A stretch of 32,000 nucleotides of DNA from Prevotella melaninogenica (GTDB lineage: Bacteria > Bacteroidota > Bacteroidia > Bacteroidales > Bacteroidaceae): the NCBI RefSeq assembly GCF_013267595.1, contig NZ_CP054011.1, positions 540,147 to 572,146 on the forward strand. Reading direction: 5' to 3'. The notes under the pieces were generated by a model, which was not told the origin of the DNA, did not search any database, and was given only the letters and a program-made list of their open reading frames with translations. This document shows positions 9,354 through 26,045 of the stretch, one piece after another (the first letter of the stretch is position 1; every line of letters starts with the position of its first letter). The translations under genes were made by a program, and so were the position numbers.

Positions 9354-9752
9354 ATGAGTTCATTTAGAGCAACTTTGGAATTAGGTGGTAAGGAGTATGA
9401 CGTACTCTATTCTAACTACGAGTTCAGCCGTACAACTGACAAGAAGGGTCAGCCTGCATCAAGCATCTCTGGCGGTCGTATCAGTGTAACTATCGAGTCA
9501 ACTGATGACACTTCTACTATCGAGGCTATGCTTAACAGCCAGTTCAAGCCTGTTGAGGGTAAGATCGTTTACAAGAAGAGCGAAGAGGATGCTAAGATGA
9601 AGGAGATTTCTTTCAAGAATGCTTACATCGTTCATTACAAGGAGACACTCGACGTTAACAACGAGGCTCCTATGACCATCGCTATGACTTTCTCTGCTGA
9701 GAATATCACCGTGGGTAATGCAGAGCTTGACAACCGTTGGCCTCGCACATAA
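9354..9752 (+). CDS. hcp: type VI secretion tube protein Hcp (Bacteroidetes TssD type)
   Basis: 132 aa. Matches my memory of Bacteroidales TssD proteins (...LELGGKEYDVLYSNYEFSRTTDKKGQPASSISGGRISVTIESTDDTS..., C-terminal GNAELDNRWP). Sits directly upstream of vgrG. Confidence 0.85.
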   Translation: MSSFRATLELGGKEYDVLYSNYEFSRTTDKKGQPASSISGGRISVTIESTDDTSTIEAMLNSQFKPVEGKIVYKKSEEDAKMKEISFKNAYIVHYKETLDVNNEAPMTIAMTFSAENITVGNAELDNRWPRT

Positions 9753-9927: not shown

Positions 9928-11739
9928 ATGTCAATTCCTTTCAACCCCATTACTATCAGCGTAGGAAAGAAGTCTCTTTCTTCTTTTATTTCTCTACAAA
10001 TCGAACAAAACATAGGTAAACACCACCGATTCCAAATGTCTGTTGAATTGGAAACGGGTAGTAATAGATATGTACATAATATCAATAGCAGCAAGGAATG
10101 GCTCGGAGAAAGCATCGTTGTGAAGGCTGCAAATACTCCTATCTTTGTTGGTGTGGTGACAAATGTACAATTACACAGAGAAGGAAGTGACTTTGGATGT
10201 ATCATCGTTTCTGGCTACTCTGCTACTTACAGACTGGAAACGGCACATAGCTGCTTCTCATGGAATGATAGAACCATTGGGGATGTAGTGAAAAAGCTGT
10301 GCGAACAAGCTAAGGTGCAATTAGAGTTGAATCCTGCATTCAAGGAAACCAAAGACTTTATCTGCCAGTATGAAGAGTCGGATTTCGACTTTATCCGTCG
10401 TCTTGCTCATCAGTATCAAGAGTGGATGTATTTCGATGGAACTAAACTCATCTTTGGTAAACCAAGGAAATTGGCTGACCCTATAAGATTAGAATATGGA
10501 ACAACACTGTCTTCACTTGACATTGGTTTACAGACCCTCGCACGCTCTGAGGAGGTATTCTCTTACCACTCTGGTGCTGACCATGAGATGCAGCGTATGA
10601 CACCAGACTTGGCCTATGGTCATGACAAACTTGCGGGCGATGCTTTCCGTGCATCATTAGGTATGTTCTCAAAACCCGCACGACAGCATGCACTGCCACG
10701 TATCAGCGATGAGTCGGAACTTATTAATTACATGGGGCGTAAGCAGGCGGCTGAGACGGCAGAAACACATTACATCACGGCTGAGAGTCAGGTGCCTACC
10801 CTGCGTGTCGGTTCTGTCGTAAGTCTCTACAGCTCATTCTTGGAACGTGTAGGAAACATATCAAAAGAGAGTTTGGGTAACTTTATCATTATCGAGATAA
10901 CCCATGAGGTGAGCCAAGGCAGCTACTACAAAAACCGCTTCAAGGCTATCCCTGCAACAATAAAGGCACTGCCAAGTCCAAAGGTACGTATGCCATTAGC
11001 AGAGACACAGATGGCAACCGTGCTTAGTAATGCTGACCCACAGGGCAAGGGTCGTGTGCGCGTACGAATGAACTGGCAGACGGATGGTATGCAGACAGGC
11101 TGGGTGCGTGTAATGACACCAGATGGCGGTAGTAGTAAGGACGTAAAGAGCAACCGTGGTTTTGTATTTATCCCAGAGGTAGGCGACCAAGTCCTCCTCG
11201 GCTTCCGTCATGGAGACCCTGCAAGACCATACGTTATGGGTAGTCTCTTTAACGGAACAACAGGTGGTGGCGGTGGTCAGGGTAACAACTGCAAGAGCCT
11301 TACCACTCGAAGCGGTAGTTCCTTGAAACTTGATGATTCCAAAGGAAGTGTTACATTAGCTGATCCTGGGAAAACAAGCATTCACATGGACGGTGCTGGT
11401 AATGCCACATTTGATTCGTCTGACAAAATAATCATCTCCTGTGGTAGTGCTTCCATTGAGTTACACAATGATGGTACAATAAAGATAAACGGTAAGGAGA
11501 TATCAGTTGGAGGCACGGATGTCTCCATAGCAGGTACATCAAGTATTGTAGCTGGCGTGGGGGAAGGTGAGACTCCAAGTACTGGTATTGGTATGTCAAC
11601 AACAGAACTTAATATAAGTTCTTCGAAAACATATATTGATGGATCCAGTGAAACTAGTGTAAGTTCAAGTGGTGGAACAACCTCTGTTACTGCATCAAGT
11701 GAGGTGATTGTAGGCGGAAGCAAAGTAAAACTAAACTAA
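9928..11739 (+). CDS. vgrG: type VI secretion spike protein VgrG
   Basis: 603 aa. gp27-like N-terminal region. gp5 OB-fold motif GRVRVRMNWQTDG...GWVRVMTPDGG...RGFVFIPEVGDQVLLGFRHGDPARPYVMGSLFNG. A Gly run follows, then a Ser/Thr/Gly-rich beta-helix-like C-terminus. Confidence 0.9.
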   Translation: MSIPFNPITISVGKKSLSSFISLQIEQNIGKHHRFQMSVELETGSNRYVHNINSSKEWLGESIVVKAANTPIFVGVVTNVQLHREGSDFGCIIVSGYSATYRLETAHSCFSWNDRTIGDVVKKLCEQAKVQLELNPAFKETKDFICQYEESDFDFIRRLAHQYQEWMYFDGTKLIFGKPRKLADPIRLEYGTTLSSLDIGLQTLARSEEVFSYHSGADHEMQRMTPDLAYGHDKLAGDAFRASLGMFSKPARQHALPRISDESELINYMGRKQAAETAETHYITAESQVPTLRVGSVVSLYSSFLERVGNISKESLGNFIIIEITHEVSQGSYYKNRFKAIPATIKALPSPKVRMPLAETQMATVLSNADPQGKGRVRVRMNWQTDGMQTGWVRVMTPDGGSSKDVKSNRGFVFIPEVGDQVLLGFRHGDPARPYVMGSLFNGTTGGGGGQGNNCKSLTTRSGSSLKLDDSKGSVTLADPGKTSIHMDGAGNATFDSSDKIIISCGSASIELHNDGTIKINGKEISVGGTDVSIAGTSSIVAGVGEGETPSTGIGMSTTELNISSSKTYIDGSSETSVSSSGGTTSVTASSEVIVGGSKVKLN

Positions 11740-11746: not shown

Positions 11747-13051
11747 ATGAATCCAGTACGATTGGAATTACTAAAGATAGACAGACAATGGTATGAGCAA
11801 GTAAAAGCACATACCGATAAACCACTATTTGTATGCTTAGGCGAGAAGCACACTCTAAACATGTTTGATGTTTATTTTAAGAGTCATGGTGCAGATGAGG
11901 TAGAAAGTGACGACGTTTTCCTTGTGAATTATAAACCATTTGAGGATGCACAGCGGTATGGCGCAGAGCTATTAGAAGAACTACATTTGGTTTATAACTT
12001 GTGGAGAGAACATAATCTGATTTCTGTTCCATGTAAAGAATGGAATACGGACATTGTCGTTCCTAATGATAAAGTAAAGACTGATGCAGGGAATACAGCT
12101 AAGGCGCTAATAGGACTATATGAATCTTTTCCACCACTACGTGGACACAAGATATTTATTCTCTTATCACCACAACAGATAAGTAGTATACCTTTATATG
12201 AACAGTGGCTGTTTGATTGGTGTGCTAATATGAATAGCAGTGATGTCAAGATTGTAGTTCTTGAAAAACATGAAGGTCGGCTGTTAAAGAATCTGCCTGA
12301 AAACAGACATGAATTTGTACTTACTGGTACTGACATTGCTTCTTTGATGAACAATGTGGCTGCCCAGACTGCTGCAGATCCTAATGATGAAGAAAATGTC
12401 CTGCAACAACAAATGTTATTGGCAAACGTTCACTTTAGCAGGCACGAGTTTGATAATGCTCATGTTGCTTTGGCTAAAGCTATTGGCATAGCCAGCCGAC
12501 ACAATCTTAAAGACGTGCTATGTACGGCTCACCTCTTAGATGCTTATGTATGGCTTACACAAAATGAACAGGAGAAAGCACATGACACATTCCGTACTTT
12601 ATTGAGTCTTACTGGTGAAGGTACTTTATTGTCCGCTCAGATGCATGTGAATTATGGTGGTTTCTTGCTTGCTATACGAAGAAAGGAGGATGCAATAGAT
12701 GCGTTTGAGAAATCAGCTGAGATTGCAAAGAATATAAAGAATCCATTATTGGAGATGGAGTGTTATCGTATTATGGGTCAAATACAAGATGGTACATTTA
12801 CAGATTCACAAACCATTGCTTATTATGAGAAGTGTATAGAGATAGGTATGACTATGAACAATGAGGAAAGACAACAAAGTTCATTAGCTTACATAGCTAC
12901 TCTATTACTAAAGAAATATGGAAACTCTAAAAAGACAGAAGAACTTTGTAAACAAATGGAGCAATATTTAGGTGCAGATTGGCAAACTAACATACAAGTC
13001 CCCAACATGGATGACCTATATCATTCACCCTTAACAAGTGTATCCTCATGA
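11747..13051 (+). CDS. unknown 434-aa protein: uncharacterised N-terminal domain plus TPR-like C-terminal half; candidate effector adaptor/chaperone
   Basis: ORF starts 8 nt after the vgrG stop. Its stop overlaps the rhs ATG (ATGA at 13048-13051). The C-terminal ~200 aa show repeated A/L/Y-rich helical pairs. I recognise no known T6SS adaptor motif. Confidence 0.7.
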   Translation: MNPVRLELLKIDRQWYEQVKAHTDKPLFVCLGEKHTLNMFDVYFKSHGADEVESDDVFLVNYKPFEDAQRYGAELLEELHLVYNLWREHNLISVPCKEWNTDIVVPNDKVKTDAGNTAKALIGLYESFPPLRGHKIFILLSPQQISSIPLYEQWLFDWCANMNSSDVKIVVLEKHEGRLLKNLPENRHEFVLTGTDIASLMNNVAAQTAADPNDEENVLQQQMLLANVHFSRHEFDNAHVALAKAIGIASRHNLKDVLCTAHLLDAYVWLTQNEQEKAHDTFRTLLSLTGEGTLLSAQMHVNYGGFLLAIRRKEDAIDAFEKSAEIAKNIKNPLLEMECYRIMGQIQDGTFTDSQTIAYYEKCIEIGMTMNNEERQQSSLAYIATLLLKKYGNSKKTEELCKQMEQYLGADWQTNIQVPNMDDLYHSPLTSVSS

Positions 13052-16000
13052 AGATAATAGCAAAGAAAGCCAATGTAGCGAGTACTGCCGTACAGCATGT
13101 GGCCAAACATTTTGATTTGGTATTAGGCATAGACATTCACTGGACAAAGCTACCTATGCCTCCTTTTCCTCTTCCCTTACCACACCCTTTCATAGGAATT
13201 GTCTTTGACCCCATGGAGTATGCAGACTTCAGCATACCAGTCCCTTCCTTGTTGCAAAAGATGTTCAATCTCCCAGAGAAGATCCCTATGGGAGCATCAG
13301 TGTTTGTTCATGGCCGTATTAAGGCAACAACTACTACATCTGTCTTTGGATTTGGTTGTAATATAAAACCTAAAGGTGGTGCTGCAAGTATGTTAGGAGC
13401 AGCTATGGTTGGGAATATTATACCTATCAAACATATAACAGGTGGTCTACCTTTCTATAAAATCTTCTTAGGAGACTTGGAAGGTCCGCATGATGGTGAA
13501 ATCTATTTTGGTTCGGAAAGTGTCATTATCAATGGTAGTGAGTGCAGTGGATCATTCCCTCAGCAGGTTCTAACTTGTTGGGGCATACCTTTCGGACACC
13601 AATATTTTCCTCCGGCATGGCTTGCTCTCTACCAGCATATATTAACAATGTATGTGCAAATAAATATCAAGCCACCTGTGCTGGTGGGTGGAACTTTTAT
13701 CCCTCATAAGTACACACTCTCTGACATTTTGATGCGTGCAGCAGCTGTACTCTTCATGAAAGCACTGGGAGCTATTGCCAAAAAAGGATTGACCAAATTT
13801 AATCATTTCCTTCAGGGTAAATTCGGTAAGAACCCTATATCTAAATCATTGTGTTTCTTCGGTTTGGAACCAGTGAACTTTGCTACAGGAGCAATGAATT
13901 TCTCTTGGGACGACTTTGAGCTATTGGGAGAGCATACCATTCGTTGGACAAGTGCGTGGCAGAGTGACATTACCTATTCTGGAATCATGGGTAATGGAGT
14001 GATATGTAACTATGACCTGTTCATTATTCCTCAGGATGCAGATGGGGTAGCAGCTTACAATAATCCAAATGAGAATCAAGTATTCCCAATACCAATACCA
14101 GAAATAGGAGGCAAAGAGGAGTATTATCGTTCTCTAAAGTTATGGCAGCATAGACCAAACAAATCTAAATGGATTGTAAGAACAGAGACTGAAATCCGCA
14201 CCTATCGTGCCTTCTCTGACAAGGAGTATGGTACAATATATCTTGCTGAAAGGATAGACTATGTGGGAGGTGGTTTCCTATTGTTAGATTATAGTGGGCG
14301 TAAGCACTTGCTTTCTACTATAGAAGATCACCTTGGACGTCTTATAATCTTTGGACAGGATGAGGAACGAGGTCTTATCCGTTCAGCAATGTATAAACAT
14401 GGCGATGTCATAGACCAATTGGTGGCATACGATTATGATGAAAGGAGTAATCTTATACGTGTACGTGATCGATTTGGTAAGAGTATTGAGTTTGAATATG
14501 ATGATGCTAATAGAGTGGTTCTACGTCGTAACCGCAACAATATGACGTATACATGGGAGTATGACGCTGAAGGACGTGTTATCCATACTACTGGTGAAGG
14601 TGGTATACAGGAAGGATATATATCTTACCATGACGGATATAACGAAGTAAAATACTCTGCCACAGGGGCTACGGAACAGTATTATTATGACGAAAACAAC
14701 CTTGTATATAAAAAGGTGGATGCCATGGGTGGTGAGACCTGGTATGGTTATAATTCTTGGCATGAGCGAACATTGGTAGGTACACCAGAGGGTAAGGTCG
14801 TAGGATATGATTATGATGACCGTGGTAACCTTATAAGATTGACGGCTGCTGACAGAGCTGAGACTGTTTATGAGTATGATGAGCATAATCGCCTAATAGC
14901 ACGTACGGATGCTGCTGGTAATAGAGAAGAATGGGTCTATGATAAAGAGACAGCATTGTTGCTGAAACATAAGGAAGCGGATGGTACTGTTGTTACTTAT
15001 ACATACGAGAAGGATAAGCAGCAGCCTTCTGCTATTGAGTATGGTGAAGAACTACGTGCTGTTCTACAATATGACACTTTAGGATTAATCTCAAATATTA
15101 CGGACGGGCATGGCGTTTGTGAAACATTCGCTTACGATGACTATGGCCGTCCACTGAAGCACAGGCATGCTGACGGGAATAGTACAGAATGGCAGCGTGA
15201 CCGACTTGGCCGTGTTACTCGCTACGCAACTCCTGGACAGAGCGTGATGCGCATCTCCTACGATGCCTACGACCTGCCTGTTGAAGTTACCAGCGGCAAT
15301 GAAGTGTGGACTATGGAGTACACTCCTATGGGTAACCTGCGCCGTCAGACACGACGGACGAGCAGTATGCGCATGGTCAGTGCGCTGAACTATGAGTATG
15401 ATTCCTATGACCAACTGAAGTTTGTCGAGAACGAACACGGTGAACGCTACTTCTTTGAACGTAACCTTAATGGTGAGGTGATTTGTGAAAGGGGCTTTGA
15501 TGGATTAGAACGTCATTATATCCGTGACCTTGACGGCACGGTGATTACTACACAGCTTCCTGATGGTACGGCTGTGCATCATCAGCATGACCAGGCTGGA
15601 CGGCTTACCTATAACAAGTACACCGATGGTAGTTGGGAGGCTTGGGAGTACGATAAGGCAGGACGGCTCACCAAAGCGTACAACAGAGACAGCGTGACGG
15701 AGTTCGTGCGTAATGCTTTGGGGCAGGTTATAAAGGAAACGCAGGACGGGCGTACAGTGGAGCATAAGTATGATGAGCGTTCCCGACTATCAAATATCGT
15801 CAGTGCATTAGGAGGAAGTATTACCTACGGATATGATATAAAAGGCACTGTCAACCACATATCAGCTGGTATGTCAGGAAAGAGGAAGCCTTGGGAAGCG
15901 AATATAGCATACGATAGGTTCGGGCGTGAAACTTCACGCATAATGTCTGGTTGTGTAGAGAATACTATGCAATATGACAATGTCGGTCGTCCTGCACATC

Positions 16001-17337
16001 AGCGTGTCCAGCATAATGGGCGAACACTGCTTGACAAGTCATACCTCTGGGGTGACAATCTTCGTCTTCTACAGGCGCTTGACACAATAAACCGCAGAAG
16101 TGTCCGTTACGATTATGATACCTTCGGTTCTCTGTCAGGGGCTGTTTATGGTGACGGTAGTTGTCAGTGGCGTAACCCAGATGCAATGGGTAATGTGTAT
16201 GATAGCCCCGACCGAACGGACAGGAGTTATGGTCGTGGTGGACAGCTGCGTGAGGACAAGAAGTGGCGGTATTATTATGACAGCCATGGCAACCTTGTGC
16301 TGAAGACCATGCGCAGGTCGGGACCATCCCTTGATGCTGGGATGCGGGATAAGTTCCTTCAATGGCAGAGCGGTGACTATGCCTATACGTGGCAGGGCAA
16401 TGGTATGCTTAGAAGTGTAACACGGGCTGACGGCAAAACTGTAACGTTCAAGTATGACGCTTTAGGCAGACGCATTGAGAAGGTCTTTGACGGACGAGTA
16501 TATCGCTACCTCTGGGATGGTGATGTCATTCTGCACGAGTGGGACTATGCCGAGGCTGACCGCCCGAACACGATTGTTACCGAGACTGGTGAGGTCACAC
16601 TCGACAGGCCAGAACCAGTTGAGAATCTCATCACATGGGTTTACGACAGTGACAGCTATGTCCCTACAGCCAAGATTGTCGGCGACAGGCATTACAGCAT
16701 CATCAGCGACTACATCGGTCGTCCTGTCCAAGCGTACGATGATAATGGTAATGTTGTCTGGCAGGCAGACTATGACATCTATGGTAATCTCCGCAATCTC
16801 CACGGCAGCAGGAAGTTCATTCCTTTCCGCCAGTTAGGACAGTATGAGGACGAGGAAACTGGGCTCTATTACAACAGATTTAGATATTATGATCCAAGGA
16901 TTGGCAATTACATCAGTCAAGACCCGATAAGGCTGGCAGGAACAGGTTTTAACCTATATGCCTATTCTAAAGATAGTAATATTGATTTTGATATTCTCGG
17001 CTTAGAATGCTGGAGTACAGCAAGAAAAAAGTTTTGGCAGCAAGAGGCAAAAAATAATCCTCATTTGTACTCTTCGAATAACTTAGCAAGAATGGAAAAG
17101 GGGAAAGCCCCCAGAATGACAATACAGGTCTTGAATCCCAAGACAGGTAAGATAAGTGTGAAGGATGTTTCTATGGAGTTACATCACAAGTTTCTTCCCC
17201 AACGAGGCGGAGGTCAGGCTGCAAACAAAGCATGGAATTTGACAAAAGCAACCCCATGGGGACACGCTTCGATGGATTCCTATAGACATACTGGATATAA
17301 ATTAATAAAAGTGATTAAAGGAACAAACTCTTGGTAA
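13048..17337 (+). CDS. rhs: Rhs-family polymorphic toxin (T6SS effector) with C-terminal colicin-type HNH DNase
   Basis: 1429 aa. DUF6531-like GLEPVNFATGAMNFSWDDFELLG. Many YD repeats (YDYDERSNLIRVRD, YEYDDANRVV, WEYDAEGRVI, YEYDEHNRLIARTDAAGN...). Core end is YYNRFRYYDPRIGNYISQDPIRLAG...DILGL. The last 110 aa (17005-17334) read RKKFWQQEAKNNP...MEKGKAP...MELHHKFLPQRGGG...NL..ATPWGH. Confidence 0.92.
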   Translation: MKIIAKKANVASTAVQHVAKHFDLVLGIDIHWTKLPMPPFPLPLPHPFIGIVFDPMEYADFSIPVPSLLQKMFNLPEKIPMGASVFVHGRIKATTTTSVFGFGCNIKPKGGAASMLGAAMVGNIIPIKHITGGLPFYKIFLGDLEGPHDGEIYFGSESVIINGSECSGSFPQQVLTCWGIPFGHQYFPPAWLALYQHILTMYVQINIKPPVLVGGTFIPHKYTLSDILMRAAAVLFMKALGAIAKKGLTKFNHFLQGKFGKNPISKSLCFFGLEPVNFATGAMNFSWDDFELLGEHTIRWTSAWQSDITYSGIMGNGVICNYDLFIIPQDADGVAAYNNPNENQVFPIPIPEIGGKEEYYRSLKLWQHRPNKSKWIVRTETEIRTYRAFSDKEYGTIYLAERIDYVGGGFLLLDYSGRKHLLSTIEDHLGRLIIFGQDEERGLIRSAMYKHGDVIDQLVAYDYDERSNLIRVRDRFGKSIEFEYDDANRVVLRRNRNNMTYTWEYDAEGRVIHTTGEGGIQEGYISYHDGYNEVKYSATGATEQYYYDENNLVYKKVDAMGGETWYGYNSWHERTLVGTPEGKVVGYDYDDRGNLIRLTAADRAETVYEYDEHNRLIARTDAAGNREEWVYDKETALLLKHKEADGTVVTYTYEKDKQQPSAIEYGEELRAVLQYDTLGLISNITDGHGVCETFAYDDYGRPLKHRHADGNSTEWQRDRLGRVTRYATPGQSVMRISYDAYDLPVEVTSGNEVWTMEYTPMGNLRRQTRRTSSMRMVSALNYEYDSYDQLKFVENEHGERYFFERNLNGEVICERGFDGLERHYIRDLDGTVITTQLPDGTAVHHQHDQAGRLTYNKYTDGSWEAWEYDKAGRLTKAYNRDSVTEFVRNALGQVIKETQDGRTVEHKYDERSRLSNIVSALGGSITYGYDIKGTVNHISAGMSGKRKPWEANIAYDRFGRETSRIMSGCVENTMQYDNVGRPAHQRVQHNGRTLLDKSYLWGDNLRLLQALDTINRRSVRYDYDTFGSLSGAVYGDGSCQWRNPDAMGNVYDSPDRTDRSYGRGGQLREDKKWRYYYDSHGNLVLKTMRRSGPSLDAGMRDKFLQWQSGDYAYTWQGNGMLRSVTRADGKTVTFKYDALGRRIEKVFDGRVYRYLWDGDVILHEWDYAEADRPNTIVTETGEVTLDRPEPVENLITWVYDSDSYVPTAKIVGDRHYSIISDYIGRPVQAYDDNGNVVWQADYDIYGNLRNLHGSRKFIPFRQLGQYEDEETGLYYNRFRYYDPRIGNYISQDPIRLAGTGFNLYAYSKDSNIDFDILGLECWSTARKKFWQQEAKNNPHLYSSNNLARMEKGKAPRMTIQVLNPKTGKISVKDVSMELHHKFLPQRGGGQAANKAWNLTKATPWGHASMDSYRHTGYKLIKVIKGTNSW

Positions 17338-17339
17338 AT

Positions 17340-17804
17340 ATGAATAAGTTAAATGAATTTATTAACGGGGAAAAATATGAATTTCTCCTGAGGAACATAC
17401 AAAAAAAAAGTAATATAGAGATTGATAGTACCATCCCTTTTGTATTGTTAGATTATGACAAAGAAATGTTAATAGCCGCACGAATTGAAATAGAAGATTT
17501 AGAATCTTTACTTAACTCATACATGACGGAAATAGTTTCTTTTGTTGAAAGAAAAATGAAATATGATTTTGAGGATGAGGATGAATATCCTGAAGGGGAA
17601 GAGCTAAGTGATGACGAAAAGCCTAAAACCATTATTGAACTACCCTACTATAAAAATTTTTTGATTGCTTATCTAATAGAGTACTATTTGCTTAAAAAGC
17701 AGCCTGCAGAATTAGGTAAATATTTAAAGAGGATACACATTTCGCATGCAACTAAATACGAAAGAGATTTGAAGGATATATGGAGAGAAACTTTGGAGAG
17801 TTGA
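17340..17804 (+). CDS. candidate immunity protein for the HNH DNase tip (acidic, not Im9-like)
   Basis: The ATG lies 2 nt after the rhs stop. The ORF-track start at 17331 is a TTG. 154 aa with the acidic run DFEDEDEYPEGEELSDDEKP. AT-rich like the toxin tip. Confidence 0.7.
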   Translation: MNKLNEFINGEKYEFLLRNIQKKSNIEIDSTIPFVLLDYDKEMLIAARIEIEDLESLLNSYMTEIVSFVERKMKYDFEDEDEYPEGEELSDDEKPKTIIELPYYKNFLIAYLIEYYLLKKQPAELGKYLKRIHISHATKYERDLKDIWRETLES

Positions 17805-17907
17805 AGCGACTTAACTGAAATAAAGGTTCTTCCGTTAAATACTTTGACTTATTTCGTATAGATTTAGCGGAGGAACCGAGGTTATGCGTTAAACAAACAG
17901 ATAGCCA

Positions 17908-17934
17908 AGACAGTCTTGACTGTCTGTTTTATTT
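17908..17934 (+). terminator. terminator-like hairpin after the immunity gene
   Basis: AGACAG TCTTGA CTGTCT (17908-17925) followed by GTTTTATTT. An outer pairing AAACAG/CTGTTT is also possible. Confidence 0.5.
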
Positions 17935-17990
17935 ATCCTCCGACACAGAATACCTTACCATTTTAACGCTTCGAAAATTTGGAGATAAGA

Positions 17991-18242
17991 CATTGAAAAG
18001 TCATGACATTATTTCGAATAAAACGTCTAAAATAAAGTGGAAAAACACGTATAAACAGCAAGATTGCAACCAACAGAAAATCAATTGGTTATGAAGTCGT
18101 ACAAGAAAAGGTGCTTGGTAAGGGTTCAAAAGGGCGTTAGTAAGACCTCAAAAGGGCACCTATTGCAAGTCAATCAGGCGTCTTTTCAAAGCCAAAAGAG
18201 CATATATCGATTTTGAGTCGTATGAAAATAGTTTACAAGTAT
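17991..18242 (+). repeat. ~250-bp noncoding repeat, copy P (inverted partner Q at 26717-26968)
   Basis: Shared colinear blocks with the reverse complement of 26717-26968: CATTGAAAAG, TAAAATAAAG, AAAAACACGTA, AACCAACAG, AAAGGGCGTTAGTAAGACCTCAAAAGGGC, GCGTCTTTT[C/G]AAAGCC, AAAAGAGCA, AAAATA[G/T]TTTACAA[G/A]TAT. Confidence 0.7.
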
Positions 18243-18453
18243 CGGTTAGTATAGGGATAAGTTGTTTGTAGAAGACAGAAAGATATGATAATGGGTAGAC
18301 ATAGTATTTATTATCTGGGGTGATAATCTTCGTCTTCTGCAGACGCTTGACACAATAAACCGCAGAAGTGTCCGTTACGATTATGATACCTTCGGTTCTC
18401 TGTCAGGGGCTGTATATGGTGACGGTAGTTGTCAGTGGCGTAACCCAGATGCA

Positions 18454-19692
18454 ATGGGTAACGTGTATGATAGCCCTGACCGAACGGACAGGAGTTATGG
18501 TCGTGGTGGACAGCTGCGTGAGGACAAGAAGTGGCGGTATTATTATGACAGCCATGGCAACCTTGTGCTGAAGACCATGCGCAGGTCGGGACCATCCCTT
18601 GATGCTGGGATGCGGGATGAGTTCCTTGCTTGGCAGAGTGGTGATTATGCCTATACGTGGCAGGGCAATGGTATGCTTAGGAGTGTAACACGGACGGACG
18701 GCAAAACCGTTACTTTTAGGTATGACGCTTTAGGCAGACGTATTGAGAAGGTCTTTGACGGACGAGTATATCGCTACCTCTGGGATGGTGATGTCATCCT
18801 GCACGAGTGGGACTATGCCGAAGCTGACCGTCCTAACACGGTTGTTACCGAGACTGGTGAGGTCACACTTGACAGCCCAGAACCTGTTGAGAATCTCATC
18901 ACGTGGGTTTACGACAGTGACAGCTATGTCCCTACAGCCAAGATAGTTGGTGACAGGCATTACAGCATCATCAGCGACTACATTGGTCGTCCTGTACAGG
19001 CATACGATGATAAAGGTAATGTTGTCTGGCAGGCAGACTATGATATCTATGGTAACGTCCGCAACATTCACCGCAGCAGGAACTTTATCCCCTTCCGCCA
19101 ATTAGGTCAGTATGAGGACGAGGAGACTGGACTGTATTACAACAGGTTTAGGTATTACGACCCAGGTTCGGGTACTTATATCAGTCAAGACCCAATTGGG
19201 TTGTTGGGAAGTAACCCAACACTGTATGTACATGTTAAAGATGTAAATACACAAGTAGACTCCTGGGGATTATTAAATGAATTTGGGATTGCTGGATATG
19301 GAACTTCACCACATATAAAAGATGGATTAAGTGCCCACGAATTATTACAAAATGCCTGGCTAAGAAATAATGGTGTCATTACAAGTAGAGCATCAGGAAT
19401 TGCAAAGAATAATCCTGCTATGGCACTACAAGAGAAAATGATGCATAAAATAATATCTAAATTACAGGCACAGTATGGATTACATAATCCAAATGTGTTA
19501 AAGAAACAAACAGCATTACAAAATATAAATAGAAACACAGCATTAACCAGAAGAGGTATTTATGAAGATCTCGTAAAAAATAGAGGTTGGGAACCTTATA
19601 ATGCTAAACAATTCGCAACAGAAAAAGCTATGAAGTTGAGGGAAGAAGCTATAGAGTTTGCGAAACAAAATGGTTTAATTAAATATAATTAA
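18454..19692 (+). CDS. orphan rhs C-terminal cassette 1 (5'-truncated Rhs core plus unassigned 139-aa toxin tip)
   Basis: Nucleotides 18314-19193 are colinear with 16046-16925 of the main rhs gene at a constant offset of 2268. The frame is open from 18292 and the first ATG is at 18454. The core ends at DSWGL, then a unique tip runs 19273-19689. Confidence 0.85.
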   Translation: MGNVYDSPDRTDRSYGRGGQLREDKKWRYYYDSHGNLVLKTMRRSGPSLDAGMRDEFLAWQSGDYAYTWQGNGMLRSVTRTDGKTVTFRYDALGRRIEKVFDGRVYRYLWDGDVILHEWDYAEADRPNTVVTETGEVTLDSPEPVENLITWVYDSDSYVPTAKIVGDRHYSIISDYIGRPVQAYDDKGNVVWQADYDIYGNVRNIHRSRNFIPFRQLGQYEDEETGLYYNRFRYYDPGSGTYISQDPIGLLGSNPTLYVHVKDVNTQVDSWGLLNEFGIAGYGTSPHIKDGLSAHELLQNAWLRNNGVITSRASGIAKNNPAMALQEKMMHKIISKLQAQYGLHNPNVLKKQTALQNINRNTALTRRGIYEDLVKNRGWEPYNAKQFATEKAMKLREEAIEFAKQNGLIKYN

Positions 19693-19694
19693 TT

Positions 19695-20252
19695 ATGAAC
19701 AAAGTCGCCAAAATCAGTTTAGACTCATCATCCACAGAAATAGGTAGAATAGGAGGAAATATACCGACTTGTTTTCTGGAGAAAAAGGAAAATATAGAGG
19801 GATTTAAATTTTATATGACAATTCAAAATCCTGATAATTCAGACGAATATATATCTATCTTTGTACCAGATAGCTACGATACAATGGTGGATGAAAATAT
19901 TTATCCCAATTGTTCAATAAAGGTTTTTACCCATTCGTTTTCTGTAGAGAGTAGTAATAACTTTTATACATTGAAAGAGCTTCATAAATCATCCCTTATG
20001 GGATACAAAGAAGTAGAAAATGAGGAATTTGATTTTGTCACAAAAACTCAGCATCCTCAGTTAATCCAGTATGAGGATTATTATTTAAAAAAATTAGATG
20101 AAGATGGGTTCACATTCTATTTGCAAATCGATGAAGATTATTATCCGGAAAATCTTCTTTCTGGGAATTATATATTGGGGTATGGTGCACTATATTTATA
20201 CAAACATAAAATCACAGGTAATATAATAGTTGGCTTTTGGCAATATTCATAA
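19695..20252 (+). CDS. candidate immunity protein for cassette 1 (DUF1963/YwqG-like pattern, tentative)
   Basis: Starts 2 nt after the cassette-1 stop. 185 aa. IGRIGGNIP...FKFYMTIQ...HPQLIQYED...FTFYLQIDEDYY...GYGALYLY resembles the DUF1963 pattern as I remember it. Confidence 0.6.
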   Translation: MNKVAKISLDSSSTEIGRIGGNIPTCFLEKKENIEGFKFYMTIQNPDNSDEYISIFVPDSYDTMVDENIYPNCSIKVFTHSFSVESSNNFYTLKELHKSSLMGYKEVENEEFDFVTKTQHPQLIQYEDYYLKKLDEDGFTFYLQIDEDYYPENLLSGNYILGYGALYLYKHKITGNIIVGFWQYS

Positions 20253-20360
20253 TTCGTTTTAACGCTATGTGTAAAAGAATGATGTCTCCTAATAACAACA
20301 CTGCCACATTTAACTACAAAACATTTAATCTGATGAGTCGAGAAGGTCTTTGACGGACGT

Positions 20361-21248
20361 GTGTATCGCTACCTTTGGGATGGTGATGTCATCCTGCACG
20401 AGTGGGACTATGCCAAAGCTGACCGCCCGAACACGATTGTTACCGAGACTGGTGAGGTCACACTCGATAGGCCTGAACCAGTTGAGAATCTCATCACGTG
20501 GGTTTACGACAGTGACAGCTATGTCCCTACAGCCAAGATAGTTGGTGACAGGCATTACAGTATCATCAGTGACTACATCGGTCGTCCCGTCCAAGCATAC
20601 GATGACAAAGGTAATGTCGTTTGGCAGGCAGAATATGACATCTATGGCAACCTCCGTAATCTCCATGGCAGCAAGAAGTTTATTCCTTTCCGTCAGTTAG
20701 GTCAGTATGAGGAAGAGGAGACTGGTCTGTATTACAACAGGTTTAGGTATTATGACCCAAGGATTGGTAATTATATCAGCCAAGATCCGATAAGGTTGGC
20801 AGGAGGAAACCCTACGATTTACGGATACGTTAAAGATTTAAATTCGTGGGTGGATTCTTTTGGGCTAGAAAATATTATTTTTACATCTTCTGACGGATTT
20901 ACTTTGGAAGTTAGAAATGTGCAAGATTTAAGTCATTTATCAAATCGTGAAATACTAGATATCTATCATGCCAATAATAATCCAAAAGGATATGGGAAAT
21001 CTCCCAAACATGCAAATGGCGATACAATTATTTTGCATCATCAAAATCAAAATCATTTAGGGCCAGTGATAGAGATGCCAAATAGTGGTCATGTTCGAGG
21101 TCTTGGAAATAAAAAGATGCATCCATATTTTCCAAATCCACATCCAACTAATCCTGTAGATAGAGACGTATTCAACAATTGGAAAAAAGAATATTGGAAA
21201 TACCGAGCAGAAACTGAGATTAAGAAAAGAGGTTTATCTTATAATTAA
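20361..21248 (+). CDS. orphan rhs C-terminal cassette 2 (short core fragment plus HNH/EndoVII-fold, LHH-like nuclease tip)
   Basis: 20340-20804 is colinear with 16477-16941 at offset 3863. The frame opens at 20337 just after TGATGA. The ORF-track start is a GTG. The core ends at DSFGL. The tip (20868-21245) contains GDTIILHHQNQNHLGPVIEMPNSGH. Confidence 0.8.
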   Translation: MYRYLWDGDVILHEWDYAKADRPNTIVTETGEVTLDRPEPVENLITWVYDSDSYVPTAKIVGDRHYSIISDYIGRPVQAYDDKGNVVWQAEYDIYGNLRNLHGSKKFIPFRQLGQYEEEETGLYYNRFRYYDPRIGNYISQDPIRLAGGNPTIYGYVKDLNSWVDSFGLENIIFTSSDGFTLEVRNVQDLSHLSNREILDIYHANNNPKGYGKSPKHANGDTIILHHQNQNHLGPVIEMPNSGHVRGLGNKKMHPYFPNPHPTNPVDRDVFNNWKKEYWKYRAETEIKKRGLSYN

Positions 21249-21258
21249 AAGTATTTTT

Positions 21259-21678
21259 ATGAAAACAGAGTTAATTGAAAGAATAAATAGTTACTTAAAC
21301 AAGTATCAATCATTCAATCCACAACCGGCAAATGATAAAGATATTAAACAAGCAGAGGTAATGTTAAATGTAGTCTTTGATTCAGATTATAAGCAATTCA
21401 TAAAAACCTTTGGGGGATGCTATGTTGGGGTGGATATTTATGGAATCAGAAGTTCAAATGACTTAAAAGAGAAGACAGTTGTTGATCTAACTAAGTTATA
21501 CAAAGAAGCTGGTTGGGCTATTGCAGATGATTGTTATATTATTTCATTTGATTCATCAGGCAATCCAATCATGATGAATAAATCGGGAGAGGTTGTTCTT
21601 TTTGATCATGACAACGGAGACTCTGTTATTTTAGCAAACTCTTTTGAGGAATTAATTGAAGACAATCTTCCTGATTAA
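21259..21678 (+). CDS. SMI1/KNR4 (SUKH-1) family immunity protein
   Basis: 139 aa, 10 nt downstream of cassette 2. Characteristic SUKH pattern: ...IKQAEVMLNVVFDSDYKQFIKTFGG... Confidence 0.8.
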   Translation: MKTELIERINSYLNKYQSFNPQPANDKDIKQAEVMLNVVFDSDYKQFIKTFGGCYVGVDIYGIRSSNDLKEKTVVDLTKLYKEAGWAIADDCYIISFDSSGNPIMMNKSGEVVLFDHDNGDSVILANSFEELIEDNLPD

Positions 21679-21901: not shown

Positions 21902-22252
21902 GGTCAGTATGAGGATGAGGAGACTGGGCTGTATTACAACAGGTTCAGGTATTACAATCCAAAGATTGGTAATTATATCAGCCAAGACCCTATAAGGTTG
22001 GCAGGAGGAAGCCCTACGCTGTATGGTTATGTTAGAGATGTTAATATAGGACAGGATATATATGGGCTTGATATCTCCTATAAAGGTGATGTTTTACCAT
22101 ATCAAATAAGATATAATCCAACTTGCCCAGGTCGGCCCGATCCTAGGTATTCAATTACTACTACTTTTGATGGTGGAACACCTACAGCAAAAGGAGGGTT
22201 GATAGACAATAAACAATTTTGGAAAAAATGGGAAAACTTAACCCAAGTTTAA
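21902..22252 (+). pseudogene. orphan rhs C-terminal cassette 3, lacking a start and truncated at its 3' end by IS insertion
   Basis: 21902-22006 is colinear with 16837-16941 at offset 5065 (GQYEDEETGLYYNRFRYYNPKIGNYISQDPIRLAGG). A TAG lies immediately upstream at 21899-21901. A unique tip starts after IYGL at 22070. The reading frame runs into the IS inverted repeat at 22237 and stops inside it. Confidence 0.8.
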
Positions 22253-24350
22253 CCGGCAAAATTATTTTTCATAAATTTTCGGGATGTTTTGTGTAGTATC
22301 AATTTGATAAATGATTGATAATCAAGTATAGGGTATTGTAACGAGGAGTAAAATCTGATTTGTAGGACACAGCCATATCAAAAATATTTTGTTACTTTGC
22401 ACTCATGCACGCAAATGTACAGACACGATTCAACCCTGCCACAGGCGACATGGCTCCTTATTATCGCATCAAGGAGTCATATCGTGACGTGCAGGGTCAT
22501 GTACATTCGCTAATTCTGTTGAACATAGGTTTTGAACCTTCACTTACTGCTGTACAGGTTCGAAAAATTGCATACGCTCTTACCGAACGCTTCAAAACCA
22601 GAAGTACACCCTCGCTTTTCAAAGAACGCCTTGAGGGACTTACTCCTATTGAACAGGCAAAGGCTGACGAATGGTGGAGCCGTATGGAGAAAGAAGGTGG
22701 AATCGATCGGTTTAATAAGGAAGAGCAGAAGTCGCTGAGAAAATATGAGAACTACATTGACCTCGAGACGGCAAACTATACTGACGCAAGGAATGTTGGT
22801 GCAGAGTGGCTCTGCAAGCAGACGATAGACAAGCTGCAGTTAGAGGGTTTTCTGCGCAAAAACGGCTGGACGGAGAATGCGATACACACGGCTTTGTCAG
22901 CATTGATTGTTCGCACGGTATATGCAGTCTCTGAACGTTCATCTTATTATTATTTGCGCGATAACTCAGCTGCTGGCGAACTTTACAGTGGAGTTCCTGG
23001 CTGGACACCAGGGATCAATTCTCTGTATAAAATCACCGACAAGTTATATGAACTAAAGGAACAGTTAGAGCGTCATCTGTGCAGCGTTACTGACGATCTC
23101 TTTAATATAGACAACAAGTTGATGCTCTTCGACTTAACCAACTTCTATTTCGAGGGTAGTAAGCGTAATAGCGATAAAGCCAAGTTCGGTCGTTCAAAAG
23201 AAAAACGCTCTGACTGTAAGCTACTTGTACTTGCATTATGTATCAATAAAGAAGGTTTTATACGTTATTCTTCTATCTTGGAGGGTAATACAGCAGATCC
23301 CAAGTCTCTACCCAATATGATTGATACGCTGGCAAAGAGGAATCCATCACGAACCAAGGATACGCTCGTTATCATGGATGCAGGTGTTGCCACGGAAGAG
23401 AACTTGGAGTTAATAAAGAAAAAGGGTTACAATTATCTCTGCGTATCTCGTACGAAAATGAAAGACTATACGCTCAGTGATGATAACAAGAGCGTTACAG
23501 TAATGGATGCCCGTCGGCAGAAGATAACGCTGAAAGAGGTTAAGACAGAGGATGATGAGGATTATTATCTCGAAATAACATCTCCTTCGAAAGCTATGAC
23601 AGAGTCGTCCATGAACAGGGTTTGGAGAGAGCGTTTTAAGATGGACCTGCAGAGGATAAACGAAGGAATCTCCAAGAAAGGTGGAACGAAAACCTATGAA
23701 AAGGTTGTTGAACGTACAGGACGTGCCATACAGAAGTACCCTTCTATAGCGAAGTTCTACCAGATAAGCTACATAAAAAATGAGAAGAAACCCAAGGAGA
23801 TGCTACGTGTAGACTGGGAGATAAAAGACCTCTCGGCAATGGAATCTGGTCACGGAGTCTATTTCCTCCGCAGCAATGTCAGGACACTTTCTGAGCGTGT
23901 GACATGGGAATACTACAATCTCATTCGTGAAATAGAATGTACGAACAGACAACTAAAGAATGATCTCAACCTCCGTCCTATCTATCATCAGAAAGATGAG
24001 CGAAGCGACGCACACCTCTTCTTCGGTTTATTAGCCTACTGGGTGGTAAACACTATCCGTTGTCAATTAAAACGAGAAGGAGAATCCTGTTACTGGACCG
24101 AGATAGTACGACGTATGAGTACCCAAAAGCTCGTCACCACAAAAGGGAAGAATCCATTAGGTGAGAACACCGAGATGCGCCAATGTAGTAGTCCTTCAAA
24201 GCAAGCAAAACAGATATACGATAAGTTGAACTTAAAACACTCACCATTCAAAAAGAATAAAATTTGTAGGACACAGAGCCCATAAGAAAAATGAGGAAAG
24301 TACGGTAACAGTAACAATTAGGCGAAGCTGGGTGTTAAACTTGGGCTAAG
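22237..24350 (+). mobile_element. IS1634-family (IS4 superfamily) insertion sequence, copy 1, ~2.1 kb
   Basis: Imperfect 17-bp terminal inverted repeats: CTTAACCCAAGTTTAAC (22237-22253) and GTTAAACTTGGGCTAAG (24334-24350). One long transposase ORF. A near-identical copy starts at 30821 in the opposite orientation. No flanking target-site duplication is visible. Confidence 0.85.
22405..24285 (+). CDS. IS1634-family DDE transposase
   Basis: 626 aa. The N-terminal ...APYYRIKESYRDVQGHVHSLILLNIGF resembles the conserved N-terminus of IS1634-group transposases (...SLVESYR...G..RQ...LG). Confidence 0.85.
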   Translation: MHANVQTRFNPATGDMAPYYRIKESYRDVQGHVHSLILLNIGFEPSLTAVQVRKIAYALTERFKTRSTPSLFKERLEGLTPIEQAKADEWWSRMEKEGGIDRFNKEEQKSLRKYENYIDLETANYTDARNVGAEWLCKQTIDKLQLEGFLRKNGWTENAIHTALSALIVRTVYAVSERSSYYYLRDNSAAGELYSGVPGWTPGINSLYKITDKLYELKEQLERHLCSVTDDLFNIDNKLMLFDLTNFYFEGSKRNSDKAKFGRSKEKRSDCKLLVLALCINKEGFIRYSSILEGNTADPKSLPNMIDTLAKRNPSRTKDTLVIMDAGVATEENLELIKKKGYNYLCVSRTKMKDYTLSDDNKSVTVMDARRQKITLKEVKTEDDEDYYLEITSPSKAMTESSMNRVWRERFKMDLQRINEGISKKGGTKTYEKVVERTGRAIQKYPSIAKFYQISYIKNEKKPKEMLRVDWEIKDLSAMESGHGVYFLRSNVRTLSERVTWEYYNLIREIECTNRQLKNDLNLRPIYHQKDERSDAHLFFGLLAYWVVNTIRCQLKREGESCYWTEIVRRMSTQKLVTTKGKNPLGENTEMRQCSSPSKQAKQIYDKLNLKHSPFKKNKICRTQSP

Positions 24351-24406
24351 TGTTATAAGAGGAATATTCGCAAGGATATTCCTCTTTTTATTTTGATTAT
24401 CAATGT
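24351..24406. repeat. right copy of the ~56-bp direct repeat (partner 8479-8534), including a second copy of the terminator hairpin
   Basis: Begins exactly at the outer end of IS1634 copy 1. See the feature at 8479-8534 for the alignment. Confidence 0.8.
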
Positions 24407-24712
24407 GATATAGCGTTATAAATTATATTTTTAATGGGTTAGTCCTAAAACCCAGTTGCAAGCCTATCCTCTTAAGCACACAATTTCATAAGTCTATATA
24501 AAAATATTGGTGTCCGATAAAACTTTTTTGGAGTTATCTGTGTTAGTTAAAATAGACTTAAACTTATGATTTCATTAATTTATCTGGTTATTATAGGGCT
24601 TTCCTTGTCAATATAAGCACATTTTATAATGCTTACAGTTTGAAACTGAAAACCAAGCCCCCTGGATAAGTAAAACGGCTGTAACACCGATGAGTAAAGA
24701 GATACAGAGCTT

Positions 24713-25585
24713 TCATTTTATTTTTACCGGACAGCAATAATATAAAAAGAAAGGAATATCTGTCACTCCTCTGAACTGTGCCCTGAATGCCTTAACTTTA
24801 GCATTGAATGACTCGGCATTTGCATTCGTAGCTCTGTTTACAAAGAAATTGAGTATGGTTTGATAATGATTTTCAAACGTGTCAATCACTGTGTAGAAAT
24901 TGTCCACTCCTAATTCTTCTACCTCATTAAACCATTTTGCTAACTTCAGCCTTGCGGCATCCTTGATGCTCTTGATGTTATAAATATCGGTAAGTTTCAT
25001 AGCCAAATCATACGCCTTTTTCAGTGTTGGATAATGTTCAAAGATGATTTGTGCTCTGTCTTTCTGTGTTTCAGTCCACTTACTCTTGTGCTTGGTCAAT
25101 ATGAACTTTGCTCTGGCGAGCAACTGCTTACGCGTGTCACCATTGCTGTATCTAAATGGTATATATTCCTTTCCCTTGCTTTTAGCTTCTTTTATCTCCT
25201 CGTTCTCTTTATCTCTTGCCATCCATCGGTAAGCAATACGCATGTCATCCAGAGCATCATAAAATAGTTTCTGTACATGAAACCTATCATTGGTAATAAG
25301 TGCTTTGGGAAAAACGGCACGGGCTATGCGCATCATAGAAGATGACAAGTCGAGTGTTATCTCCTTGACTGTCTTCCGTTTAGAAAGGTTTATCTTCTTG
25401 AGAACCTGAATAACATCCTCTGCTTTGGTCCCTTTAACCACAGCTATCAAAGTCCCTTTTCTGCCCTTTCCCGCCTTGTTGGTCAGAAAAGTATAAACCT
25501 CGCCACTGCTTAGACAGGTCTCATCGATACTTAGATTCTCACCTATGTTATCTTCAAACAATAGCCAGTCTTGAGCATGATCCAA
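24713..25585 (-). CDS. ISL3/ISAon1-like transposase, catalytic ORF (+1 frame relative to the N-terminal ORF)
   Basis: The ORF track gives 290 aa from a TTG start. The same frame is open up to 25708 and there encodes KNRIESTAESIASIGAHYGVNGKLLSTQYKEYFSDYRSW. Contains IDETCLSSGE...LITNDRFHVQK, typical of ISL3-type DDE transposases. Confidence 0.8.
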   Translation of the reverse strand: MDHAQDWLLFEDNIGENLSIDETCLSSGEVYTFLTNKAGKGRKGTLIAVVKGTKAEDVIQVLKKINLSKRKTVKEITLDLSSSMMRIARAVFPKALITNDRFHVQKLFYDALDDMRIAYRWMARDKENEEIKEAKSKGKEYIPFRYSNGDTRKQLLARAKFILTKHKSKWTETQKDRAQIIFEHYPTLKKAYDLAMKLTDIYNIKSIKDAARLKLAKWFNEVEELGVDNFYTVIDTFENHYQTILNFFVNRATNANAESFNAKVKAFRAQFRGVTDIPFFLYYCCPVKIK

Positions 25586-25700
25586 CTGATCCCAGCTACG
25601 GTAATCACTGAAATATTCCTTGTACTGTGTGGATAACAGCTTACCATTTACGCCATAGTGCGCACCGATACTTGCGATGCTCTCTGCAGTGGACTCAATT

Positions 25701-26045
25701 CTATTCTTTTAAAAAAGAAACGAACTCGGGGGATAATTTACTGCCCTCGGCCGTCAAGTCATCATATGAATAAGTAAATATCTCTCCGTTGGAACTGTCA
25801 CGCCACTTGCGACGGCGAACATGGAGGTAAACTGCTTTGCCACGGAGGGGGAAGTCCTGAATTACACGCTCGCTGGTAAAACCATAACTGCTTACAGTGC
25901 CTAACTTATGGTCTGACTTTTCCATAAAGTTACGCTCGTCAAGCCAAAAGTCAAACTGGCAAGCACTCTCTTGAATATCGACAACATCAAAGTAGTCGGC
26001 AAGTACATCTGGAAATATGCAACGTAATAATTGGTGACTCTTCAT
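25701..26045 (-). CDS. ISL3/ISAon1-like transposase, N-terminal ORF
   Basis: 114 aa. ...VIQDFPLRGKAVYLHVRRRKWRD... is typical of the N-terminal region of this transposase group. Ends at TAG within ...TTT TTA AAA GAA TAG. Confidence 0.8.
   Translation of the reverse strand: MKSHQLLRCIFPDVLADYFDVVDIQESACQFDFWLDERNFMEKSDHKLGTVSSYGFTSERVIQDFPLRGKAVYLHVRRRKWRDSSNGEIFTYSYDDLTAEGSKLSPEFVSFLKE

Follow-up and report, generated by a model that had tools for sequence, protein, structure and literature searches.

An orphan Rhs cassette of Prevotella melaninogenica with a Tox-SHH-related toxin tip and a TYPP-like candidate immunity protein

We analysed a stretch of 32,000 nucleotides of Prevotella melaninogenica (assembly GCF_013267595.1, contig NZ_CP054011.1, positions 540,147 to 572,146 of the forward strand), hereafter the window, and in particular one element in it: an orphan Rhs cassette, called cassette 1, which is composed of a 5'-truncated rhs core fragment, a C-terminal toxin tip of 139 amino acids (aa) and, directly downstream, a gene for an acidic protein of 185 aa. 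The best explanation of this element, which we hold to be probable without regarding it as settled, is that the tip represents an unnamed and uncharacterised 'HE' sister clade of the Tox-SHH toxins (PF15652) and acts as a His-Me finger nuclease, and that the 185-aa product is its TYPP-like immunity protein. The window tip is a founding-level example of the HE clade, which is missed by current family databases. The positions of the features discussed are collected in Table 1.

The toxin tip and its family

The open reading frame (ORF) of cassette 1 lies on the plus strand (18454-19692) and encodes 412 aa; it ends with ...DPIGLLGSNPTLYVHVKDVNTQVDSWGL followed by LNEFGIAGYG...NGLIKYN, the tip beginning with LNEFGIAGYG after QVDSWGL. 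The NCBIfam model TIGR03696 (Rhs-associated core) ends at residue 272 of this ORF, that is at DSWG, and the D..GL boundary aligns in all tip homologues. DSWGL is presumed to be the autoproteolytic boundary that would free the tip, a cleavage taken over from published Rhs biology. The original prediction had described a 139-aa tip after DSWGL, mostly helical and basic, and a 185-aa gene beginning 2 nucleotides downstream of it. Both sets of coordinates were confirmed (19273-19692 and 19695-20252), and the tip has about 57% helix in its AlphaFold2 model and an isoelectric point (pI) of 9.9. Neither the tip nor the 185-aa protein has a Pfam-A or NCBIfam match at E<=1, and the matches of the tip ORF to PDB sequence profiles are confined to its Rhs core portion. 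The best homologues reach E-values of 7e-66 for the tip and 4e-119 for the 185-aa protein, and since homologues of both are found in several phyla, the two are genuine, conserved proteins rather than ORFs that arose by chance.

A word-indexed search returned 31 close tip homologues with 50-94% identity, mostly short orphan-like fragments, in genera including Pseudomonas, Mangrovibacter, Aneurinibacillus, Myroides, Chryseobacterium and Flavobacterium. The family was much extended by an exhaustive search with a hidden Markov model (HMM) among 1.84 billion cluster representatives, which gave 331 proteins at E<=1e-3, 95 of them at E<=1e-10; each of the 331 stands for a cluster at 50% identity. Nearly all carriers have the domain no more than a few residues away from the C-terminus. 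They comprise full-length Rhs proteins (1307-1700 aa), one of which is encoded directly after VgrG, as well as PT-HINT and PT-TG proteins, one eCIS_core protein and one protein of 5506 aa. Judged from the sequences of these carriers, the family is a deployed C-terminal domain of polymorphic toxins. It is widespread, being found in several phyla on toxins of the Rhs, PT-HINT, PT-TG and eCIS types, and because it escapes Pfam and NCBIfam, many of the effectors that carry it are labelled only 'RHS' or 'hypothetical'.

The core of the family extends from residue 1 to about residue 100, and the last ~35 residues, which form a helical hairpin, are found only in the close subfamily. Among 107 representatives, E22 and H57 are invariant, followed by N46 (106), H21 and D16 (103 each, with Asp at position 21 in the other four), Q64 (102), N87 (101) and P47 (100). 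It had been stated in the original prediction that the tip lacks an HH...N...H pattern, and indeed no HH dipeptide is present; as far as conserved residues can tell, the tip is nevertheless not motif-less, presenting H21-E22...N46...H57 instead, with Glu as the sole invariant member of the dyad. The four clade representatives with a D-E dyad ('LDADELL') in place of H-E, which include P0124, P0125 and P0131 (L012 3001-7188), count full-length VgrG-linked Rhs toxins among them.

Homology to Tox-SHH and the putative active site

The connection with Tox-SHH is carried mainly by a profile-profile comparison. When the alignment of the tip family (107 sequences) was compared by hhalign with an alignment of Tox-SHH (34 sequences, of low diversity with Neff 2.4), the probability was 92.9% (E=3.7e-7, 96 columns), the match running from position 1 to 110 of the query and from 1 to 100 of the 115 positions of the template; in global mode it was 92.2% over 111 columns. 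The 22 controls, composed of the reversed alignment, 20 column-shuffled alignments and the unrelated family of the 185-aa immunity candidate, gave at most 0.5%. Intact Tox-SHH reference sequences were taken from plasmid records, and 47 homologues with a precomputed PF15652 annotation were also collected. In the alignment, L18-S-A-H21-E22-L-L-Q-N-A-W28 is paired with L-E-N-H-H-G-V-M-D-V-W of Tox-SHH, N46-P-A-M-A-L with [ST]-P-T-[IV]-A-L, and H57 with the next conserved His; moreover, the aGVP motif of distant clade members aligns with aNVP of Tox-SHH.

The same relationship is seen, at lower strength, with the Pfam model of Tox-SHH, whose gathering threshold is 22.7 bits. Sub-threshold matches were obtained in 6 of 69 broader relatives (17.2 and 15.7 bits, for example), and two of these are collinear with the profile: residues 38-129 of P0249 with positions 1-90 of 96 (E=0.027) and residues 108-198 of P0238 with positions 3-94 of 96 (E=0.009). 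P0249 is placed in the same register as by hhalign, assuming that the first eight profile positions are free of gaps. Both proteins came from a second set, ten relatives scanned with Pfam having given no Tox-SHH match. Two bona fide Tox-SHH domains, one in an LXG toxin of Bacillus velezensis and one in an Rhs protein of Burkholderia cenocepacia, scored 122 and 93 bits. A protein 69% identical to the tip (P0008) is named 'Tox-SHH domain-containing protein' in UniProt, despite having no Pfam match. In view of the full-length hhalign match, the sub-threshold Pfam matches and this name, the original claim that the tip matches no known toxin signature, HNH variants included, is not supported. A profile match of the tip to a known toxin family, which had been named as an outcome that would speak against an uncharacterised pair, largely exists in Tox-SHH, yet the clade is itself uncharacterised and lies below the Pfam threshold.

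Tox-SHH is a polymorphic-toxin domain of the His-Me finger (HNH/EndoVII) superfamily, known for example from V2c of A. tumefaciens, Tke4 of P. putida, Txe4 of P. plecoglossicida and LXG toxins of Bacillus, and some members have been shown by experiment to be DNases (bioRxiv 10.1101/2023.03.20.533438). Tox-SHH and the HE clade alike are found at the C-terminus of polymorphic toxins such as those of the Rhs, PT-HINT and LXG types; they are basic, have similar length and spacing, and have in common the motifs L-x-x-H-[H/E]-x-x-x-x-x-W and [N/S/T]-P-x-x-A-L, an early helix His and a later aGVP/aNVP, and SUKH-type immunity is found with distant members of the HE clade. They differ in several respects. 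The best relative of the tip reaches 17 bits against the cut-off of 22.7, and the window tip has no match. D16, Q25, Q64 and N87 are additional invariant or near-invariant residues of the HE clade, whose close subfamily also has the additional C-terminal helical hairpin. Two residues of V2c are essential, namely H384, the second dyad His and catalytic base, and the helix His H408, and the first His (H383) is less critical (bioRxiv 10.1101/2023.03.20.533438); in the HE clade H408 is matched by H57 in 107/107, whereas an invariant Glu stands in place of H384. Finally, the immunity partners listed for Tox-SHH are SUKH, Imm11, Imm24, Imm30 and Imm55 (PMC3482391), and the TYPP-like partner of the close subfamily is none of these.

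Two side observations concern the Tox-SHH family itself. One bona fide member (P0310) has R-H in place of H-H. In Pseudomonas putida, downstream of the tip-immunity pair described below, a decayed cassette (L001/L002 5422-5771) consists of a short Rhs-repeat ORF running into the C-terminal half of a Tox-SHH domain and is followed by a SUKH gene, so that HE-type and HH-type domains stand side by side in one orphan array; the truncated Tox-SHH remnant (L001 5565-5771), similar by eye, was not detected by the HMM of the tip family.

The AlphaFold2 model of the tip (predicted local distance difference test, pLDDT, 94.2; predicted template modelling score 0.89) shows by DSSP a strand (18-22), a loop with two short helices, a second strand (47-52) and a helix (53-66). 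H21 and E22 are the penultimate and the last residue of the first predicted strand, and the second predicted strand starts directly after N46. In the model, this strand-loop-strand-helix order is compatible with a His-Me finger (beta-beta-alpha-metal) having a long loop between the strands. N46 and H57 are at the places expected for a His-Me finger in both sequence and predicted secondary structure, and the alignment puts E22 at the catalytic-His position and H21 at the preceding metal-ligand position. In other His-Me fingers a D/E/H metal-ligand position precedes the catalytic His (PMC5714182), and H21, or Asp in the four representatives mentioned, fits it. The assignment to the His-Me superfamily is based on profile homology together with topology, and from it we infer nuclease activity.

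If the tip is such a nuclease, recombination through the core segment shared with the main rhs gene (883 bp, 92% identical) would join it to a full-length Rhs protein, and the joined tip would be cut off after DSWGL and delivered by the T6SS (type VI secretion system). In the cytoplasm of the target it would cleave nucleic acid, DNA being the most likely substrate, with a single metal ion held by H57, position 21 (H or D) and N46. E22, which is invariant, would act as the general base in place of the His that does so in other His-Me fingers, and substrate binding may be aided by the C-terminal helical hairpin, which is basic. The link to Tox-SHH gives the clade a testable function and a shortlist of residues (E22, H57, N46 and H21), and an invariant Glu at the catalytic-His position, unusual for His-Me fingers, amounts to a natural experiment on the one-metal mechanism.

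Several observations weigh against this explanation. No Pfam model matches the window tip or 18 close homologues, even at E<=10. Foldseek and Pfam checks of the tip, which had been proposed with the original prediction, both came back without a significant match, the Foldseek search of the model against PDB and BFVD giving nothing at E<=1e-3 and unrelated helical proteins at the top. At the aligned position the near-universal catalytic His is replaced by Glu, and we know of no characterised precedent for Glu there. This His, the presumed general base, is 'nearly invariant' in the His-Me superfamily as a whole, in which only three groups lack it, being Tyr-using or inactive (PMC5714182), and the [SG]HH signature of Tox-SHH (PMC3482391) reads S-A-H-E in the tip, the second His being Glu in 107/107. 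As to deployment, all 15 members listed of the 90% cluster of the window tip (136 members) are fragments of at most 485 aa, and cassette 1 has no N-terminal delivery region in this genome, so that the toxin is possibly not deployed here; the fragment probably serves as a recombination reserve.

Part of these observations would also be expected if the Tox-SHH link were spurious and the tip were a new fold with a non-nuclease activity: the lack of Pfam and NCBIfam matches for the tip and its close homologues, the silence of Foldseek in PDB and BFVD despite a model with pLDDT 94, the absence of PDB sequence-profile matches outside the Rhs core and the low diversity of the Tox-SHH alignment all point in that direction. 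We regard it as quite improbable, because the hhalign match extends from one end to the other and pairs the motifs with each other (L..HE..W, NP.AL, H, aGVP), with the controls far lower, and because the Pfam HMM placements of two relatives, over nearly the whole profile, are independent of it. The silence of Foldseek is unsurprising, since Tox-SHH has no solved structure (0 structures for its group 30 in PMC5714182) and the finger makes up only ~40 of 138 residues.

Other observations bear on an unlikely alternative, in which the tip shares its ancestry with Tox-SHH but has been repurposed, the change from His to Glu reflecting a changed chemistry or substrate. Such a tip might be an RNase, a nickase that uses metal differently, a phosphatase-like enzyme or a toxin that binds instead of cleaving. 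The invariance of E22 where other His-Me fingers have His is consistent with it, as are the clade-specific conserved D16, Q25, Q64 and N87, which are absent from Tox-SHH; of the three groups without a catalytic His, one uses Tyr and one is inactive (PMC5714182), and V2c itself has an effect on cell elongation that is independent of its DNase (bioRxiv 10.1101/2023.03.20.533438). Against repurposing, the remaining metal-site positions (H57, N46, H/D21) are kept as in active nucleases, distant members of the clade have SUKH-type immunity as HNH toxins do, and the tip is strongly basic, like DNA or RNA binders. Glu is, in addition, a competent general base in principle.

Beyond Tox-SHH, the family GH-E/Tox-GHE, whose Pfam accession we take to be PF14410, invites comparison. 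This polymorphic toxin has an HNH/EndoVII fold, a motif with GH, E, N and E among its elements, and immunity that is not of the SUKH type (Imm-SuFu) (Zhang et al. 2012). The resemblance is one of motif, drawn from a table alone; at E<=10, neither the tip nor its 69 relatives match such models in Pfam. A second candidate, the RdnE/RdnI pair (IdrD-CT, PD-(D/E)XK), in which a 138-aa Rhs tip has Prevotella homologues, was rejected: RdnE has a D...ExK catalytic motif and RdnI is all-helical (PMC12483513), the tip family has no conserved D...ExK, and the model of the immunity candidate is beta-rich, not helical.

The 185-aa protein as a candidate immunity protein

The product of the gene downstream of the tip carries GGNIP, HPQLIQ and YLQIDEDYYPE...GYGALYLY. 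At E<=0.01 it has 80 homologues (in Prevotella, Enterobacter, Kosakonia, Morganella, Fusobacterium, Xylocopilactobacillus and others), the closest of which are from oral Prevotella, with 90% identity to a P. melaninogenica protein. The residues that are invariant in 31-35 homologues include G20, G21, P24, Y70, P71, H80, Q125, E147, G164, G180 and Q183. Its AlphaFold2 model (pLDDT 94.7) is mostly beta, and the top Foldseek match in PDB is 1pv5, the YwqG protein of B. subtilis (E=1.3e-3, prob 1.00, TMq 0.55); the next matches have a prob of at most 0.18. Among bacterial proteins, YwqG serves as the prototype of the TYPP domain, the hallmarks of which are GGxP and a conserved Gln (PMC4275035). 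GGNIP has one residue more (GGxxP), with G20, G21 and P24 invariant, and we count both hallmarks as present.

The resemblance to DUF1963/YwqG-type proteins put forward in the original prediction is borne out by fold (TM 0.55 to 1pv5) and motif, and fails at the level of Pfam. The 185-aa protein has no match to Pfam DUF1963 (threshold 23 bits), and weak matches occur in 3 of 31 homologues (E>=0.037, about 14-15 bits), those that were located lying at inconsistent profile positions; searching PDB with the sequence profile of the immunity family likewise gave no match. Three homologues are named DUF1963 by NCBI or UniProt. In comparison with the YwqG/DUF1963 family (PF09234; TYPP superfamily with TSR4, YwqG, PDCD2L and PDCD2), 1pv5 is the sole convincing fold match and GG-x-(x)-P and Gln are common to both, whereas YwqG has 261 aa, and the window protein sits in the context of a toxin-immunity pair.

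This context recurs in other genomes. In four other organisms a homologue of the immunity candidate is found directly 3' of a tip homologue, in many cases with an overlap of a few bases, so that the pairing extends over three phyla (Pseudomonadota, Bacillota and Bacteroidota): Pseudomonas putida (53% identity), Mangrovibacter phragmitis (46%), Aneurinibacillus migulanus (39%) and Flavobacterium lipolyticum (38%). In M. phragmitis the called gene is truncated (L006 4429-4995, 122 aa); a single unbroken tblastn alignment nevertheless covers all 185 aa, which points to an internal stop in this copy or to a sequencing error. The original view of an uncharacterised effector-immunity pair is thus upheld by synteny and by the fact that no curated family model exists for either protein, and has to be qualified by the link of the tip to Tox-SHH.

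In three further places, in Enterobacter cloacae, Fusobacterium necrophorum and Xylocopilactobacillus apis, an immunity homologue has no tip homologue within 3.5 kb upstream. The copy of E. cloacae follows an Rhs-WHH toxin gene and a SUKH immunity gene, and those of F. necrophorum and X. apis stand in arrays of mostly unannotated small ORFs, which might be polyimmunity loci. Immunity genes are often found as orphans, and a position after the toxin and a lone occurrence are both typical of them. If the explanation that we favour is right, the acidic 185-aa protein would bind and neutralise the basic toxin, with pI values of 4.6 and 9.9 that are complementary, and it may protect this genome against neighbours that deploy the same tip; the immunity gene may be useful on its own here. 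For competition between strains in oral Prevotella, both the cassette and its immunity gene, which is widely conserved, are of relevance.

The TYPP resemblance raises the alternative that the 185-aa protein is a chaperone or an adaptor of the toxin and not an immunity protein. TYPP domains (compare PDCD2/TSR4) have been proposed as chaperone-like protein-interaction modules, an immunity role not being among the proposals (PMC4275035), and in the literature searched no paper links DUF1963 to immunity proteins. We nonetheless hold this alternative to be very improbable. In five genomes the gene occupies the canonical immunity position directly 3' of the tip; the copies without a tip, in the Enterobacter Rhs-WHH/SUKH island and the small-ORF arrays of two genera, behave like orphan immunity genes; an acidic protein faces a basic toxin; and the normal place of a T6SS adaptor is upstream of its effector, where the TPR gene lies in the window. 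As a partner of a toxin tip, the 185-aa protein provides the first concrete functional context, in the literature searched, for compact bacterial DUF1963/TYPP proteins.

Distant members of the HE clade have other candidate immunity partners. After one of them a 201-aa protein is encoded (L011 7604-8209), which has a faint SUKH_6 match, and after another a 324-aa protein without Pfam match (L012 7188-8162); neither is TYPP-like. Because these partners are unrelated, one toxin clade is served by several immunity folds, and the TYPP pairing is specific to the close subfamily with the C-terminal hairpin. A more far-reaching idea, about which we are doubtful, is that the HE clade is a His-Me lineage in which catalytic His has become Glu with altered chemistry or substrate, and that bacterial YwqG-type TYPP proteins are toxin-binding immunity proteins, a conflict module like SUKH and SuFu that was later recruited by eukaryotes as the PDCD2/TSR4 chaperones of ribosomal proteins.

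The Rhs locus and its array of orphan cassettes

Upstream of cassette 1, genes for Hcp and VgrG identify an effector locus of type VI secretion, and these are followed by a TPR protein and by the main rhs gene, which encodes a full-length effector of 1429 aa with its own HNH-type tip (Table 1). This main Rhs protein is likely to be the recipient in tip swapping. Its tip scores 21.6 bits with Tox-HNH-HHH, below the cut-off of 26.1. An ORF for an acidic protein of 157 aa (17331-17804) overlaps the main rhs stop by 7 nucleotides and has no Pfam or NCBIfam match at E<=1; it is presumably the immunity gene of the main tip.

Table 1. Positions of the features discussed, in window coordinates unless a locus is named
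Feature	Position	Strand	Remarks
Hcp/TssD	9354-9752	+	Pfam TssD, E=6e-45
VgrG	9928-11739	+	Pfam Phage_base_V and Phage_GPD
TPR protein	11747-13051		upstream of main Rhs
Main full-length Rhs effector, 1429 aa, own HNH-type tip	13048-17337	+	Pfam RHS_repeat, DUF6531, RHS; weak Tox-HNH-HHH
Cassette 1, orphan 5'-truncated rhs core fragment	18314-19272	+	ORF as listed begins at 18454; RHS, RHS_repeat and Rhs_assc_core matches
DSWGL, end of Rhs-associated core	19258-19272	+	downstream of DPIGL (19189-19203)
Toxin tip, Tox-SHH-like 'HE' domain with C-terminal helical hairpin, 139 aa	19273-19689; stop 19690-19692	+	
H21-E22 dyad, end of predicted strand 1	19336-19341	+	aligns with Tox-SHH HH; E22 at catalytic-His position
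N46-P47, start of predicted strand 2	19411-19416	+	aligns with Tox-SHH [ST]-P; N46 is candidate 'N' of the H-N-H triad
H57, fifth residue of predicted core helix	19444-19446	+	aligns with conserved Tox-SHH His; candidate metal-binding His
Immunity candidate, 185 aa, acidic, compact TYPP/DUF1963 (YwqG)-like	19695-20252	+	begins 2 nucleotides after tip stop
GGNIP	19752-19766	+	GGxP-like TYPP hallmark
Invariant Gln of the 185-aa protein	Q125 20067-20069; Q183 20241-20243	+	
Immunity homologues without tip	L014 3501-4067; L015 3501-4088; L016 3501-4064		

Downstream of the main rhs gene there are three 5'-truncated rhs fragments, each with DNA common to the 3' end of its core. Cassette 1 shares 18314-19196 with main rhs 16046-16928 (92.4% identity over 883 bp). 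Cassette 2, composed of an LHH tip and a SUKH immunity gene, shares 20340-20804 with 16477-16941 (91.2%), and the third fragment shares 21902-22047 with 16837-16982 (78.8% over 146 bp). Cassettes of the orphan rhs-CT/rhsI kind that follow a main rhs gene are reportedly known from work of Poole and colleagues in 2011, and the arrangement in the window is a classical array of this kind, with truncated fragments after the main gene that have the core in common and differ in tip and immunity gene. It differs in lying in a Bacteroidota-type T6SS locus and in being followed by transposase genes, its architecture being otherwise ordinary. The content of guanine plus cytosine is 0.32 in the tip of cassette 1 against 0.49 in the adjacent core, and 0.30-0.32 in the tips and immunity genes of all cassettes (19273-21678) against 0.45-0.49 in the rhs core (13048-16950), which suggests a pool with less guanine and cytosine for the variable modules, either as the source from which they came or as the pool in which they circulate.

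The third orphan fragment (21902-22252) has an 84-aa tip ORF without a family match and without an obvious immunity gene. Directly 3' of it are a DDE_Tnp_1 transposase gene (22405-24285) and then a minus-strand ISL3 transposase gene split into two ORFs (22405-26045 for the region), and insertion of these elements may have truncated the cassette array. A scan for sigma-70 promoters between 17300 and 22500, a method ill-suited to Bacteroidota, stayed at background, with 18 found against 19.1 expected. On both strands of the region 14500-21100, alternative frames included, numerous ORFs of 50-120 aa overlap with the rhs core and with the repeats of it, among them 16462-16803, 18730-19101 and 20325-20666; they recur because the DNA is repeated, and look like by-products of the composition of Rhs repeats rather than genes.

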